Shown here piece after piece: positions 33,904 to 64,000 of a DNA stretch of 64,000 bases. Under the pieces are notes generated by a model that made no database searches, was not told the DNA's origin, and saw only the letters and a program-made list of their open reading frames with translations. This DNA comes from a virus. Taxonomy: Duplodnaviria > Heunggongvirae > Uroviricota > Caudoviricetes. The stretch lies in the IMG/VR virus record IMGVR_UViG_3300046522_000750; one strand, 5' to 3'. The position numbers and the translations under genes were made by a program. Positions within the stretch are counted from its first letter, which is position 1. Every line of letters starts with the position of its first letter.

Positions 33904-34839
33904 TCAAAGGCCCATGGCGCTTTCCAGTAATCCCGCTTTCAAATGGCGGTTCGTATTCAAGAAGGGGCGCAGTTCTGCCTCTGTATAGATCTCGAGAGCC
34001 AAGGAGACGTGTTTGCGGGTGGTCAGCAAGGGAATGACCTCCTCGATTGGCTGCGCTTTCACAAAACTCAAATACAGCGAGCACGAGTCAAATTTGCCAC
34101 TCGCCACAGCCTTCTCTAATGCCTCATTAAGCGTTTTTGGCTTTTCGAGCACCTCATTGTTGTCGATATAAACCAGGGGCCAATGCCCATTGCGTATGAA
34201 TTGGGCTGGCAGGTCAAGGCGCCCTGCTTTCCTGGCCTCTAGGTAGGAGAAAAATCCCTCCCCAAAACGAATTTCAAAAACCGATTCAGAGACCTTGCTG
34301 GGCGGGAGGATTAACACGAATTCTAAGGAAGACCTGCCCGCGAGCTCAAAGAGTTCCGGCGTCATGACGCTCTCAATCCACGGGATCGCCTCAAAGCTTT
34401 TAGAGAATTTCGCCGGCCTAGTCGCAAAGGTAGGCATCTTGATCATGCGCTTTACGGTTTCTGTTGTACGAAAGTCTTCATGGAAAATGGCGGGCGCCAT
34501 AAAGTCGCCAACAAACGCGCTAACGCAGAGATCTTGGTAGCTGGGCGTTTGCTCGGGCGTGATAAAACCGAGAATTTCAGGGTCGTGATGCACCGCAAAT
34601 TTCAAAAGATCTTCTCCCAATAAATCCTTGGGAATCTGCACATAGTGTTCAGACATGCCTTCTTTGTCTGTGGTGTGCATGGCCATGAGCCAATTCAGGA
34701 CGTTCACTGGCGTACGAAGCGCCTGAGGGATGTCCGTGAATTTCGGGTACAGCAAAAAGGGCTCGACCCTTTCCGCGTAATCGTCATCTAGCTGATAGAT
34801 TTTCATTTTCACGCTAGTTTTCCCAATACCACCGCCCAA
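33904..34839 (-). CDS. LGL-tail family A paralog A01 (311 aa; last gene of array)
   Basis: Family A motifs (F.DIP, QIP..L, PWI.SVMTPEL, GRLDLPA, SLY.SFVKA.PIEEV); tail KAGLLESAMGL. Confidence 0.85.
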   Translation of the reverse strand: MGGGIGKTSVKMKIYQLDDDYAERVEPFLLYPKFTDIPQALRTPVNVLNWLMAMHTTDKEGMSEHYVQIPKDLLGEDLLKFAVHHDPEILGFITPEQTPSYQDLCVSAFVGDFMAPAIFHEDFRTTETVKRMIKMPTFATRPAKFSKSFEAIPWIESVMTPELFELAGRSSLEFVLILPPSKVSESVFEIRFGEGFFSYLEARKAGRLDLPAQFIRNGHWPLVYIDNNEVLEKPKTLNEALEKAVASGKFDSCSLYLSFVKAQPIEEVIPLLTTRKHVSLALEIYTEAELRPFLNTNRHLKAGLLESAMGL

Positions 34840-34864
34840 GCCAATTCTTAAGGCGCTTTCTGAC

Positions 34865-35767
34865 TCATAAGCCCATCGAGGATTCCAAGACGCCGGCCTT
34901 CAAATGCCGGTTGTTTCTCATCAGGGGACGAAGTTCTTCTTCTGTATACAGCTCGGTCATCAATTTCGCGTGATCACGTGTGGTGGCCAGAGCAAGTACG
35001 TCTTCGATGGGATGCGCCTTCACAAAACTCATGTACAGCGCACGGGGGCCATCTTCCGTATACTCCAGAGCGCGTTTGAGCCCAATCTCCAGTGTTTTTG
35101 GCCTTCCAATCACTTGATCGAAATTCCTGGTGACATAAGGCCAAGATCCATTTGCTATAAACTTGGCCGGCAAGTCCAGGCGCCCTGCAGATCTGGCCCT
35201 CATGAGCTTACCAAAGCCACTACTAAAGTGATGTTTCAGAGCTAAATCGGAAGCGCTTGAGGCCGGATGCAACATCAAAAAATTAACTGAAGCCCTACTG
35301 GCTCGTTCGTGAAGCTCAGGGGTCATGACGCTTTGTATCCATGGAATGGCTTCAAAGCTCTTGGAGAACATCGCCGGCTTTAAGCCATAGTCAGGCTGAT
35401 TAATCATGAGCTCTACGGTTTCTGCCGTCCGGACACTTTCATGAAAAATCATCGGCGCCATATAATGCCCAACAAATGCTGAGACACAGTGATCTTGATA
35501 ATTAGGCGTGTCTTCAGGTTTGATAAGATCAATTATCAGGGGATCATATTCCACAGCAAATTTGAGGATCTCCTCATCAATCAAATCTTTTGGAATTTGC
35601 ACAAAGTGCTCAGACATATCGTCTTCGTCTGTTGTATGCATCGCTTTGAGCCAACGCAAGGCGCCTATCGATGTACGACTCGCCTCTGGAATGTCGGTAA
35701 ACTTTGGATACTGTAGAAATGGCTGTACAAACGTAATATAAGATATGTCCGATTGATACTTTTTCAT
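34865..35767 (-). CDS. LGL-tail family A paralog A02 (300 aa)
   Basis: Close paralog of A01; tail KAGVLESSMGL. Confidence 0.85.
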   Translation of the reverse strand: MKKYQSDISYITFVQPFLQYPKFTDIPEASRTSIGALRWLKAMHTTDEDDMSEHFVQIPKDLIDEEILKFAVEYDPLIIDLIKPEDTPNYQDHCVSAFVGHYMAPMIFHESVRTAETVELMINQPDYGLKPAMFSKSFEAIPWIQSVMTPELHERASRASVNFLMLHPASSASDLALKHHFSSGFGKLMRARSAGRLDLPAKFIANGSWPYVTRNFDQVIGRPKTLEIGLKRALEYTEDGPRALYMSFVKAHPIEDVLALATTRDHAKLMTELYTEEELRPLMRNNRHLKAGVLESSMGL

Positions 35768-35822
35768 GCTTTGTGTTCCGAGTCTGCCGCCCTGGCCAAT
35801 TATTCAGGTGCTTTCTTCCACT

Positions 35823-61920: not shown

Positions 61921-62786
61921 AGACCCATTTCACTTTCGAGTAGCCGGCCTTTGAATGCTTTGTCCTGGCTCAGTTCCTTAGTTTTCAGGTATGGGGTCAG
62001 CTCTTCTGCTGAATACAGCTGCAACAGCGCCAGCCTTCTACTCGGTGTATCCATGTTGGCGATGACGTCCTGAATCGGGAACTGGAGGATGTAGGCTCGG
62101 TGCAGTAGGCACTCTTGCATGGGTAAAAACCGCTGAATCCCACTTTCAAGGCTGTCAGGTGCAGCTGGCCGATCTTTTGGCCAGAAGCCCTCACGGATCA
62201 TGTCGACCAAGACCTGGTAGCGCCCAATGTCGACCAGAACCTGATAATCAAAACACTGGTGGGTAATGCAGTCTTTTACCGCTTTTTCTGTGATCTGATG
62301 GTGATCAAACTGCAACAGATAACCCGCTGACCTTGAGGCCGCCAGCTCAACAACCTCATTGTCTACTACTTTTTCGATGCGTTTTTTGGCTCTTGCCGTT
62401 AATGGCATCAGCGCTCCGGAATTGACCGTCAGCGCTTTGATCAGGAAATCTTTGGTCAGGTACTCATCGGCCACTTCGCCGAAAACTCGAATGGTGCGCT
62501 TGATACCCAGCAACGCCAGCTCTTCATAGCGCCTCGTCTGCCATGGCTTGATGTTCATGAACGACTCAATCACCAGACTTTCAGTCAACGACTTGCGTGA
62601 CGCTGGCGCCATGGCCGCGATCCTGACCTCGTCATTGATCAATTCATCGGGGATGTCGTAAAGCGAACCCAGTCCGTTCTCCACCCAAAGCTCGGCCACT
62701 TTCGTGGACAGATGCTCAGCGGGAATATTTGAAAATCTCTGAAATTTTCCGTTTAAAATGCCTGAAATAACCTCGCCCAGCGTCAC
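61917..62786 (-). CDS. LGL-tail family A paralog A32 (289 aa)
   Basis: Tail KGRLLESEMGL; ATGA junctions. Confidence 0.85.
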   Translation of the reverse strand: MTLGEVISGILNGKFQRFSNIPAEHLSTKVAELWVENGLGSLYDIPDELINDEVRIAAMAPASRKSLTESLVIESFMNIKPWQTRRYEELALLGIKRTIRVFGEVADEYLTKDFLIKALTVNSGALMPLTARAKKRIEKVVDNEVVELAASRSAGYLLQFDHHQITEKAVKDCITHQCFDYQVLVDIGRYQVLVDMIREGFWPKDRPAAPDSLESGIQRFLPMQECLLHRAYILQFPIQDVIANMDTPSRRLALLQLYSAEELTPYLKTKELSQDKAFKGRLLESEMGL

Positions 62787-63655
62787 AGGCCCATCTCACA
62801 TTCAAGCACCAGGCTTTTGAACAACGTGTCCTTGGCCAGGTGGGTGTTTTTGATGTTCCGCGCCAGCTCGTCCGTTGGATACAGGTTAAAGAGCGCGATC
62901 TTCCTATTGAGGGTGTCCATGTGCTCAATTACCTCCCTAATAGGGAATTGCTTTACGTAAGCCATATGAATAACGGATCCACCAAGAACACCCTTGATCC
63001 CAGCGTCTAAATCTTCAGGTGCCTTATCGCGATCATGACACCAAAAACCTTCCCTGACCAATTCGGTCAGCACGTCCAAACGACCAATCTTGATTAGGTT
63101 TTTGTAGTCAAATTGATGATTTTTTATGCATTGGCGCAGCGCGGATGTGCTGTATTGGTGATTTGCAAAAAAACCAAAATAGACAGGACTGTTCGACACG
63201 GCAAAGTCGATCACTTCCTGATCAATGACAATTTTTGATCGCTTGAATCGCTGAGGAATACCGACCAGATAAAACAATGCCCTGTTATTCATCGCAAGCG
63301 CCTTCATCAGAAACGACGTCGTCAGATACGAAAAATCAACACTCCAGATGGCCTTGCCCTCGTAGTTCACGCCGGCCAGTGCAATGTCCTCGTAACGGTC
63401 GGTATGCTCTGGCAGGATGAGGCGCAAAGAATCAGCTACATATGACGCGTTTCCCAGTTTATTGCCCGCAATCGGCGCCATGGCAGCGAATCGAACATCA
63501 TCGTCTATCAGCGCGGGGGGGATGTCGCGCAAGCCTCCCTTGCCCTGACTGACCCACAGGCAAGCCAGCTCTTTGTCCTGGCTGCTCGCCGGAATTTCAG
63601 AAAATAAATTCAGGTCGCCATTTATGATGGCTGATTCAATCGCTTCACGGTTCAT
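62783..63655 (-). CDS. LGL-tail family A paralog A33 (290 aa)
   Basis: Tail KSLVLECEMGL; ATGA junctions. Confidence 0.85.
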   Translation of the reverse strand: MNREAIESAIINGDLNLFSEIPASSQDKELACLWVSQGKGGLRDIPPALIDDDVRFAAMAPIAGNKLGNASYVADSLRLILPEHTDRYEDIALAGVNYEGKAIWSVDFSYLTTSFLMKALAMNNRALFYLVGIPQRFKRSKIVIDQEVIDFAVSNSPVYFGFFANHQYSTSALRQCIKNHQFDYKNLIKIGRLDVLTELVREGFWCHDRDKAPEDLDAGIKGVLGGSVIHMAYVKQFPIREVIEHMDTLNRKIALFNLYPTDELARNIKNTHLAKDTLFKSLVLECEMGL

Positions 63656-64000
63656 AGGCCCAGACCTTCCCCTAGCAAGTGACCCCGCACCCTATGGGCG
63701 GACTTGAGAAATCCCGTACGAAGGTGCGGCATGAGTTCCTCGGTGCTGTAGATTTCCAGCATCAAGTCCTGGAGTTCAGGCGATTTCATCAGCGGGAGCA
63801 CCTCTTCCATCGGCAAGTGTCGGACAAAAGCGGTGTAGTAAATCTCACGCGTGCGCGATGACTTCTTTGCGTCTTGCAGGAAATAAAACGCCTCATCCAG
63901 TGATGATGGTTTTTTCTCGTCCTTCGGCCAGTAACCATCACGCATCGCGTCAACAATAAAATCAGCAAAGCCAGCGTTGGCAATATGAATGGCGCTGACT
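63652..64000 (-). CDS. LGL-tail family A paralog A34, 3' part (ORF continues beyond the right window edge)
   Basis: Tail RGHLLGEGLGL; frame stays open from 63946 to 64000 (...DFIVDAMRDGYWP...), aligning with the GRLDLLA..GxWP block of the family. Confidence 0.75.
   Translation of the reverse strand, partial: VSAIHIANAGFADFIVDAMRDGYWPKDEKKPSSLDEAFYFLQDAKKSSRTREIYYTAFVRHLPMEEVLPLMKSPELQDLMLEIYSTEELMPHLRTGFLKSAHRVRGHLLGEGLGL

Follow-up and report, generated by a model that had tools for sequence, protein, structure and literature searches.

A nearly invariant C-terminal tail on a 40-copy paralog array and on unrelated proteins of a Pseudomonas-type megaplasmid: a putative address tag

What could be the use of dozens of diverged copies of one gene, lined up on a single strand with nothing in between? 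This question is raised by the IMG/VR virus record IMGVR_UViG_3300046522_000750, a stretch of 64,000 nucleotides (nt) that was analysed as a whole and is called the window in the following. According to the list of open reading frames (ORFs), 33 complete ORFs of 284–318 amino acids (aa) occupy the minus strand from 33904 to 63655 without any interposed gene, and a further copy is cut by the window edge. These genes were designated family A and were numbered A01–A34 within the window. A hidden Markov model (HMM) of the family matched 34/34 copies with E-values of 4e-25 to 2e-102 and had no other match in the window; such an arrangement lies far outside what chance would produce. This is in agreement with a previous sequence-only reading of the same DNA, which had described 33 complete genes and a truncated one, all intact and on one strand, and had offered two guesses about their nature, namely immunity genes or the effectors or cargo of a secretion system. 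The motifs that it had listed were also found in the family A alignment. It had overlooked that the copies end on LE..LGL, and that unrelated genes in the window have the same ending.

This C-terminal tail turned out to be the most characteristic feature of the array. Every family A copy ends ...[KR]-G-x-x-L-E-x-x-[LM]-G-L followed by the stop codon, with the exception of A23, which ends MGF. While the protein bodies are variable, with pairwise amino acid identities of 17–58%, the tail is nearly invariant. In an alignment of 120 diverse family A representatives the conservation was 1.9–3.5 bits/site in the last 50 residues versus about 1.0–1.5 elsewhere, and LGL was the best conserved triplet. 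Glu is present at position −6 in 89% of the sequences, Asp or Glu is frequent at −5, and Leu or Met at −3. The ending is retained in the best relatives found among 1.84 billion representative proteins, of which 131 of 149 end with a hydrophobic residue, a glycine and another hydrophobic residue. The conserved module comprises about 30–55 residues, and structure prediction places the tail within a folded helix, with a predicted local distance difference test score (pLDDT) of 86.

Overlapping records made it possible to follow the array upstream of the window edge. The same DNA is present on a 69.5-kb read-archive contig and on a 1,131,278-bp JGI contig, and the full array was found to contain 40 family A copies, 7 of which lie at or past position 64000 if the edge-cut copy is counted. 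Upstream of them lie two head genes, which are paralogs and encode proteins of 529 and 543 aa. The operon has 42 genes and a size of about 39 kb (from ~73143 down to 33904 in window-equivalent coordinates), and the window contains its distal 34 genes, A01–A34 being the operon copies T40 down to T07. The earlier count of at least 34 copies was thus right for the window, but it fell short of the real extent, which is 40 copies plus the two head genes.

The plasmid context of the array had not been recognized in the earlier reading. Upstream of the head genes there follow, in this order, an RNase R/RNB gene on the opposite strand, a CNNM gene, a gene for a Rep_3 initiator and a non-coding stretch. 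The initiator (Rep3_N plus Rep3_C) is encoded about 4 kb upstream of head gene 1, and the non-coding stretch of about 1.9 kb contains 14 copies of CAAAT.TGGACAGATTC.GG, i.e., a classical iteron origin. This iteron field (positions 1463–3040 of locus L086, equivalent to about 78–80 kb and thus outside the window) also contains TGGAC.G.T.TGCGA repeats in a 22-bp phase, and it marks oriV. When Rep was compared with 72,556 plasmids, the best matches were the FeN3W plasmid (909 kb, 55% identity), P. silesiensis pPL1 (NZ_CP143488.1, 1.17 Mb, 51%) and pMPPla107 (972 kb, 47%). A DUF808 gene in the window (Table 1) has its closest counterpart on another Pseudomonas megaplasmid and has further matches in pMPPla107, in the Leaf58 plasmid (pBASL58-like) and in pPL1. 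The Rep identities of 47–55% and the DUF808 identity of up to 72% place the element within this broad megaplasmid clade. The initiator is related, backbone genes are shared, the replicon has a size of about 1 Mb, and synteny of the locus extends to pPL1 and to an isolate of the P. putida group. All these features indicate that the element is a Pseudomonas-type megaplasmid of about 1.1 Mb, in one clade with pMPPla107, pPL1 and the FeN3W plasmid. A phage origin was ruled out by 0 tblastn matches in 50,697 phage records, by the lack of a PHROG match and by the Rep_3/iteron origin, and the chromosome of a small-genome symbiont was ruled out by the plasmid Rep, the iterons and the synteny with Pseudomonas megaplasmids. 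Scans of the window for Rfam families and tRNAs gave no match.

The tail is not confined to family A, but is common to at least 10 sequence-unrelated families of 73–632 aa on these plasmids. Both head proteins carry it. In the window it is found on a second tandem array, family B, the body of which is unrelated to family A and all copies of which end ...EIFG.KA..LLP.....KG..LE..LGL, on the single gene of family C and, in a weaker version, on family D (Table 1). A second locus of the same element (L092; Logan SRR26076530_167483, 42500–63369) contains two further tail-tagged tandem arrays, family E with at least five genes of about 480 aa and family F with at least five genes of about 516 aa, as well as tail genes for a 188-aa protein (G188) and a 399-aa protein (I399) and two family A-like tail genes. 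Between these arrays lie genes for a 615-aa PF00004 AAA ATPase and for a 292-aa membrane protein, both of which are devoid of the tail. In the P. putida-group isolate the tail is found on proteins with unrelated bodies of 632/585 aa, 367 aa and 197 aa, and in pPL1 four head-like paralogs and two other proteins have a related, though divergent tail, ...FS.DLGL. After removal of the last 45 residues, BLASTP and phmmer detected similarities within families only. An hhalign comparison of families A and B yielded an E-value of 1.7e-5, which was carried by the last ~55 residues; the comparison of family A with the head proteins was not significant, and the likeness of their tails is based on inspection of the last ~30 residues only.

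The frequency of the tail was determined by counting a strict pattern on six-frame ORFs of at least 60 aa. It was found in 45 of 427 ORFs of the window and in 1 of 3683 ORFs of 506 kb unrelated bacterial DNA, while neither the 90 kb of pMPPla107 nor the 66 kb of the FeN3W plasmid that were scanned yielded a match. In the element itself, an island of tail genes close to the origin stretches over window-equivalent coordinates of ~11.2 to ~73 kb, and the 8 kb that adjoin the window on its left are free of such genes. Together with the second locus, it seems that the megaplasmid is built largely from tail-tagged paralog arrays. A search of an index of 5.8 billion proteins with a profile of the tail alone retrieved two family B fragments only, the word index requiring longer matches. 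Literature searches on pMPPla107, on DUF4116 and on megaplasmid or type IVB effectors revealed no description of family A, the tail or the array. Taken together, the tail looks like a previously undescribed address tag. It would serve as a targeting signal, and quite probably it is a recognition signal that these families share at the protein level and that is read by one machine.

Alternatively, the tail could have been retained chiefly as a constraint at the level of the nucleic acid, the peptide itself being functionless. The gene junctions give some reason for this suspicion. Overlaps of 4 nt are present at 24 of the 33 family A junctions (19 ATGA, 5 GTGA), and the other nine have gaps of 15, 15, 21, 25, 36, 38, 55, 100 and 136 nt; 26 overlaps had been counted before, which is due to a different choice of start codons, while the gap range of 15–136 nt was confirmed. 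Typically the tail codons are CTT GAG GAG/GAT ... GGN CTA/TTA TGA. The GAGGAG or GAGGAT contributed by them falls at −17 to −12 of the next start codon, and a Shine-Dalgarno (SD)-like motif is present upstream of 26 of the 33 starts. In 21 of 33 genes the last Leu is encoded by CTA or TTA, which forms, with TGA, the ATGA that includes the next start. The tail codons therefore supply the next ribosome binding site (RBS) and start codon, and translational coupling is built into the tail; by this arrangement of the codons the dual coding would hard-wire equimolar, coupled translation along the operon. However, the tail is equally conserved where no coupled gene follows, i.e., in A01, in the gapped copies of family B, in family C, in G188, in I399 and in distant homologs. 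The amino acids are conserved while their codons vary synonymously (GAG in 16 and GAA in 15 cases at −6, all four Gly codons at −2, and six codons, five for Leu and one for Phe, at −1), and the conserved module reaches about 50 residues upstream, well past any RBS. The uncoupled and the singleton tail genes imply that dual coding cannot be the reason for the existence of the tail, and an explanation by the nucleic acid alone is largely refuted and has hardly any probability left.

The overlaps and the SD-like motifs in the tail codons are in accordance with the earlier proposal of one long, translationally coupled operon, and so are consensus scans for transcription signals. In the array (34000–54000) only 8 matches to a sigma-70-like promoter were found, i.e., fewer than the 16 ± 4.6 in dinucleotide shuffles, and terminator-like sites were not enriched. 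The deficit of promoter sites may reflect selection against internal promoters or merely the composition of the array. Beyond A01 lies a GC-rich hairpin (Table 1), which was likewise detected by consensus scanning and probably marks where the operon transcript ends; its T-run is on the plus strand, and termination of minus-strand transcription at this site is suggested by the arrangement. These signals point to a single operon transcript.

The age of the array was deduced from comparisons of the copies with one another and with related elements. Neighbours had a mean identity of 39%, compared to about 24% for copies at least 12 positions apart, and the copies formed contiguous clades along the array (A01–10, A11–14, A15–20, A21–22, A23–29, A30 and A31–34), as expected from the earlier proposal that neighbours are more alike and that the array arose by serial local duplication. 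There is one interleaving, A21–22 being akin to A11–14 and A15–20 akin to A23–29, which argues for a segmental event on top of the serial duplications. The N-terminal blocks proposed before were only roughly right, MIKQ being restricted to A11–A12 and WFDEIP to A31. With identities of not more than 58%, the copies are not the near-identical products that would have spoken against selection on each of them; they are old and diverged and do not stem from a recent amplification.

In two related elements the array is collinear with that of the window, with few local gains and losses. The best match of each copy was its positional counterpart, with 45–87% identity, and this always exceeded the identity to paralogs. 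Even A30, the singleton lineage, has a positional ortholog with 61–62% identity in a related plasmid. For 19 positional ortholog pairs the NG86 ratio of nonsynonymous to synonymous substitutions (dN/dS) was 0.12–0.32, with dS from 0.25 to saturation. Hence most duplications are older than the divergence of these plasmids, and the ratios argue, as had been assumed from the intactness of the genes, that every copy is retained by purifying, though not strict, selection. In a sister element of 303,896 bp (L003 3850–4503) the array is interrupted by an opposite-strand gene for an ERCC4/HhH nuclease, located between A21 and A22, where the window has the 136-nt gap instead.

The known relatives are few. 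The head proteins have only 11 relatives among 5.8 billion proteins, which are encoded on contigs of 1.13, 1.28 and 0.30 Mb and on fragments, and one head-relative locus (L087) is located on a 1.11-Mb copy. A scan of GTDB genomes with a family A sub-alignment found no relatives, scans of metagenome contigs with a head-protein alignment and with a tail alignment gave no matches in a collection that seems to lack these samples, and neither did tblastn searches of PLSDB with family B and one DotM_C-like protein (see below). The array-bearing elements form a separate sub-clade, of which only metagenome and read-archive assemblies (1.11–1.28 Mb) and one P. putida-group draft genome are known. The latter, the cultured isolate GCA_016337225.1, has 5 family A copies at the syntenic locus, one of them split by a TnpB insertion, in the order Rep_3, CNNM, RNB, one head gene, family A x5, Band_7, DUF808; the copy number at the locus thus ranges from 5 to 40. 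This genome is labelled P. putida, is listed as P. alloputida, and has the lowest G+C content among 413 P. putida-group genomes (PMC11585281), which fits the presence of a large plasmid of about 51% G+C. At the syntenic locus of pPL1 (L096, 115000–160000) the head-like family is expanded to four copies (522–615 aa) in place of family A, showing that the tail-bearing family that has expanded at this site differs between lineages.

What the bodies of the family A proteins do was approached by remote homology. Direct searches of Pfam, NCBIfam, PHROGs, PADLOC and PDB sequences were all without a match, and Pfam DUF4116 (PF13475, gathering threshold 24.9 bits) did not match any of ten diverse members at E ≤1. 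A family A profile run against the 1.84 billion representatives yielded 1585 relatives at E ≤1e-3 and 89 at ≤1e-30, and its positions ~14–140 matched large multi-repeat proteins repeatedly, with E-values of 1e-20 to 1e-33. These large proteins contain 4–12 Pfam-confirmed DUF4116 repeats, including a DUF4062-NACHT-DUF4116x12 architecture. With hhalign, family A aligned to the DUF4116 protein P0151 over residues 50–111 (E 3.2e-5, probability 73%). Residues ~15–140 of family A align with DUF4116 proteins and have the pattern (I/V)P..L..D.....A......L in common with them; unlike DUF4116 proteins, family A has only about 2–3 degenerate repeats, followed by a unique region of about 150 residues and the tail module. 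These results indicate that the N-terminal ~130 residues are short, divergent DUF4116-type repeats of remote relationship, and the previous statement that no known domain is present stands for direct searches, but has to be amended for this N-terminal part. In NACHT/STAND NTPases the DUF4116 repeat makes up the repeat arm at the C-terminus, and this use suggests a binding function for family A. The body is confidently predicted to be a compact, soluble alpha-solenoid (pLDDT 95.5). The proteins have a median isoelectric point of 5.35 and a median of 4 cysteines, and, as had been noted, no signal peptide.

The array could also be a bank of immunity or antidote proteins that act inside the plasmid-bearing cell and are not exported. 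Each copy would then neutralise a different polymorphic toxin or a different factor of the host or of a phage, and the tail would merely have a part in structure or oligomerisation. In favour of this are the solenoid fold, which is well suited to bind proteins, the purifying selection on the copies, and the fact that long arrays of small, diverged paralogs on one strand are a typical form of immunity-gene clusters, immunity genes having been one of the two earlier guesses. However, no toxin gene, no Rhs/CdiA/VgrG/PAAR gene and no orphan toxin tip was found in the operon or upstream of it, and there is no alternation of toxin and immunity genes. The previous statement that no toxin is in view also holds for the part of the operon beyond 64000, where the two head genes encode helical proteins that do not match a toxin domain and have the same tail. 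An Imm/SUKH match was missing in Pfam, and there was none in NCBIfam or PADLOC. Moreover, the identical extreme C-terminus of at least 10 unrelated families (73–632 aa) would be left unexplained, and an immunity bank is considered to be very unlikely.

A candidate for the reader of the tail was found within the island itself. Two adjacent paralogous genes encode small cytoplasmic proteins with a DotM_C domain (Table 1), with Pfam scores of 29.7 and 26.5 bits at a cut-off of 27. Apart from this domain, searches of Pfam, PHROGs, NCBIfam, PADLOC and PDB were uninformative for the head, B, C, D and DotM_C-like proteins, and no PDB sequence match was obtained for the latter. DotM_C-like genes also adjoin the DUF808 gene in pPL1 and in pPLMAXa; in pMPPla107 there is no such gene beside DUF808, and no tails were seen there. 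In known systems DotM is a subunit of the coupling complex of type IVB secretion systems (T4BSS), its cytoplasmic domain binds acidic C-terminal signals of effectors, and its homolog on IncI plasmids is TrbA (PMC5802825). The two island proteins are therefore candidate receptors or adaptors of the tail. The tail has the composition of a Dot/Icm signal, i.e., a C-terminus rich in acidic or small polar residues with a hydrophobic residue near −3, and it is far more conserved than the known signals. Its Glu at −6, Asp/Glu at −5 and Leu/Met at −3 recall features of Dot/Icm signals that were reportedly described by Nagai and coworkers in 2005 and by Huang and coworkers in 2011. Secretion genes are present in the lineage: pMPPla107 is typed as MPF_I (mating-pair formation) and has DotA/TraY, and on pPL1, a plasmid with tails, thin-pilus genes of the IncI type are found together with a homolog of DotA/TraY (39% identity, query coverage 98%). 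For pMPPla107 a complete Dot/Icm-like type IV secretion system (T4SS) with an undefined substrate range has been reported (PMC3136466).

With the shared tail on unrelated families, the DotM_C genes of the island and a lineage that carries a T4BSS, the second of the earlier guesses, a secretion effector or cargo repertoire, has gained real support. It is tentatively suggested that the machine that reads the tail is a T4BSS, and it is conceivable, with similar reservation, that the family A array is a repertoire of binder proteins targeted to it; solenoid bodies as binders of targets and the T4BSS as the machine are proposed with less confidence than the targeting role of the tail. According to this proposal, the tail would be an address tag for the coupling complex of the plasmid's Dot/Icm-IncI-type T4BSS, and the two DotM_C-domain proteins would recognize it as receptors or serve as its adaptors. 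The 40 solenoids would be expressed together and exported as a set of binders, each tuned to a different target in the receiving cell, and the other tail families (B, C, E, F, the head proteins and others) would be exported together with them. It is tempting to speculate further that the clade of ~1-Mb megaplasmids injects dozens to more than 100 tagged proteins of at least 10 families into recipients via DotM-like adaptors, together with or ahead of the DNA, and that the 40-gene operon is a stoichiometric binder library that neutralizes defence or incompatibility factors of the recipient. This far-reaching version is improbable, but if it were true, it would be an effector arsenal for plasmid establishment, like the Legionella effectorome but aimed at bacteria.

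Several observations weigh against a T4BSS as the reader. With 26.5 versus 27 bits, the weaker DotM_C match is marginal, and both matches cover just the profile positions 80–159. No T4BSS gene was found in the ~135 kb read of the 1.13-Mb element, and PLSDB/MOB-suite assigns no MPF module type to pPL1 and the FeN3W plasmid. Conversely, pMPPla107 has a T4BSS, yet no tail-bearing ORF was found in the 90 kb sampled, and therefore tail and T4BSS do not simply co-vary. In addition, known Dot/Icm signals are degenerate and disordered, whereas the tail is sharply conserved and predicted to be folded. Last, the 615-aa AAA ATPase among the tail arrays of the second locus is a possible alternative reader.

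This leads to the alternative that the tail is a tag for another machine, such as a degron or delivery tag for a plasmid-encoded AAA+ unfoldase or protease, a signal for a type I ABC exporter, or a docking peptide by which a scaffold or compartment takes up many clients, in the manner of the cargo-loading peptides of encapsulins. All evidence for the tail as a shared, selected signal at the protein level fits this explanation equally well. The AAA ATPase and the membrane protein are encoded between two tail-bearing arrays, and a folded tail instead of a disordered one would be in line with it. The ending E-x-x-L-G-L-COOH can presumably be likened to the acidic-plus-hydrophobic C-terminus of some type I secretion substrates and, loosely, to cargo peptides of the LGxGSL type. 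However, neither the window nor the further loci that were read contained a detectable gene for an ABC exporter, a membrane-fusion protein, an encapsulin/HK97 shell or a protease, and neither Pfam nor PHROG matches revealed an encapsulin or bacterial microcompartment shell gene there. Of the hallmarks of type I secretion, the genes for exporter, membrane-fusion protein and outer-membrane factor were not found among the scanned ORFs of the window or at the second locus, RTX nonapeptide repeats were absent from the family A alignment, and cysteines are present (median 4). For the degron version, it is hard to rationalise why 40 stable, selected solenoids should be made just for degradation. DotM_C is the sole tail-related domain match in the island, and a different machine is considered to be rather unlikely.

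Among described systems, a repertoire of secretion substrates with a common C-terminal module is the nearest kind, from which the array differs in the signal, the substrates, the extreme coupled operon and the plasmid setting. One such module is XVIPCD, a conserved and folded C-terminal T4SS signal on diverse effectors of Xanthomonadales, which is the common recognition element for the type IV coupling protein (PMC8740702). Like the tail, it is carried by many unrelated bodies, the X-Tfe effectors, the genes of which are scattered or clustered in one genome. In contrast, XVIPCD has about 120 residues, its own motifs and a Gln-rich tail and is read by the all-alpha domain of VirD4 of a type A system, while the module described here has about 30–55 residues, ends LE..LGL-COOH and occurs in a lineage with a type IVB system. 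X-Tfe effectors are toxins with adjacent immunity genes, whereas family A consists of non-enzymatic solenoids in a 40-gene coupled operon without immunity partners. Signs of a direct relationship to XVIPCD were missing, as there was no Pfam match, the motifs differ and there are no partner genes.

The Dot/Icm effectors of Legionella and Coxiella with their E-block signals (PMC5802825) are similar in being a large, paralog-rich repertoire of mostly domain-less or repeat proteins with an acidic C-terminal signal and a hydrophobic residue near −3, and on the megaplasmids this is paralleled by DotM-type genes and a Dot/Icm-like DotA/TraY in the lineage. Their signals are degenerate and cannot be aligned, whereas the tail hardly varies and forms the very C-terminus, and the effectors of Legionella are encoded by scattered monocistrons instead of a 42-gene translationally coupled operon. 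Unlike in Legionella and Coxiella, the host is a free-living Pseudomonas megaplasmid carrier, with a T4BSS that is thought to be conjugative. DotM and TrbA are membrane-anchored, while the DotM_C genes of the island encode small soluble paralogs.

Conjugative T4SSs are known to export plasmid-encoded proteins to recipients, for example the 'conjutome' of the F plasmid and PsiB, SSB and ParB (PMC8406263, PMC11288057). Such proteins and the anti-defence islands of leading regions (PMC11541004) resemble the tail-gene island in that they are encoded in plasmid-borne, co-oriented clusters of small proteins mostly without assigned function, and they act early in the new host. They have neither a shared tail nor paralog arrays, in contrast to family A. 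Leading regions are defined by oriT and single-stranded DNA promoters, neither of which was located here; the island adjoins oriV and rep, and no match to known anti-defence families was found for the island. Of the pMPPla107-family megaplasmids (PMC3136466, PMC6482414), the element shares the size of about 1 Mb, related Rep_3 and DUF808 genes, an overwhelming majority of hypothetical genes and the Dot/Icm-like T4BSS genes of the lineage, but pMPPla107 has no family A array and no tail gene in the sampled 90 kb.

Since 2011 it has been undecided whether the Dot/Icm-like T4SS of these megaplasmids is used for conjugation only or also for the secretion of effectors (PMC3136466). The tail is the first concrete candidate for a signal and a substrate set of this T4SS, and it is easily searchable. 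Since P. silesiensis G3, the host of pPL1, and GCA_016337225.1 are cultured strains with tail-bearing genes, this question is directly testable. Should the tail prove to be read by the T4BSS, type IVB export would for the first time have a signal that can be aligned, with which substrates could be predicted or engineered, and it would be evidence that conjugative machines deliver large effector repertoires. About 75% of the genes of pMPPla107-type megaplasmids are hypothetical. Irrespective of the mechanism, the 42-gene operon represents an extreme operon architecture, in which a C-terminal tag doubles as the next RBS and start codon and in which forty paralogs are kept in order under purifying selection.

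Table 1. Positions of the family A array, of other tail-bearing genes and of further features in the window.
Feature	Position	Strand	Remarks
Family A array	33904..64000	-	A01 (33904-34839) through A33 (62783-63655), plus a cut 34th copy
34th family A copy, 3′ part only	63652-64000	-	Cut by the window edge
Block A01-A10	33904..42913	-	30-58% identical inside the block; tails ...RHLKAALLEESLGL; operon-distal end
Block A11-A14	42910..46446	-	48-55% identical; 30-34% to A21-A22
Block A15-A20	46443..51842	-	~26-36% to A23-A29
A21-A22	51839..53765	-	Largest gap of the array between them, 136 nt, 52718-52853
Block A23-A29	53781..60122	-	Contains a 100-nt gap, 59123-59222; A23 ends MGF, not LGL
A30, singleton lineage	60119..61009	-	≤27% identity to any other copy
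Block A31-A34	61048..64000	-	Tails ...FKGRLLE.E[LM]GL; upstream continuation T01-T06 outside the window
GC-rich hairpin GAAGCCTCC-GCT-GGAGGCTT	33874..33894	.	A-run and T-run on its flanks; between A01 and a convergent 470-aa gene
DUF808 gene and two SPFH/Band_7 genes	29981..32317	-	Synteny anchors to Pseudomonas megaplasmids
DUF808 gene	29981-30916	-	Pfam; 72% identical to pMPCFBP13716
Two adjacent paralogous DotM_C-domain genes	27824-28552, 28477-28959	-	Small cytoplasmic proteins, 29% identical
Family D, two paralogs	25458..27250	-	287 and 277 aa, 31% identical; end GGLGL and PGLGM; weaker tail version
Family C, single 212-aa gene	23640..24278	-	Ends ...AGELLSERLGL
Family B, second tandem paralog array	11180..18447	+	9 readable copies of 73-198 aa plus fragments; from all-vs-all BLAST and tails
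IS605-type TnpB gene	15630-16589		Interrupts family B

Family B differs from family A in its state of preservation. Several of its copies are translationally coupled, yet decay is visible, unlike in family A. One copy is apparently split into the ORFs 14379–14735 and 14732–14953, and 16609–16791 and 17422–17544 are fragments that comprise the tail only.

Two further genes had matches to ADP-ribosyltransferases, both below the Pfam cut-off. The minus-strand gene 26417–27250, a member of family D that ends GLGM, matched Pertussis_S1 with an E-value of 0.09, and the minus-strand gene 7815–8471 matched ART-PolyVal with an E-value of 2e-4, which is a hint that some island genes may encode enzymes. 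Outside the tail-gene island, the minus-strand region 2588–3246 probably encodes a type II toxin-antitoxin pair: the 86-aa gene 2986–3246 matched PhdYeFM_antitox, and the 133-aa gene 2588–2989, which has a 4-nt overlap with the antitoxin gene, is by position and sequence a candidate for a VapC/PIN-like toxin. Within the island, the minus-strand gene 22380–23609 encodes a 409-aa protein with an ATP-grasp domain of the R2K clade (Pfam R2K_2 and R2K_3, E ~1e-11; phrog_7313), a domain that is typical of conflict systems of phages and mobile elements, and near to it a small Hsp20 gene is located at 20062–20520.

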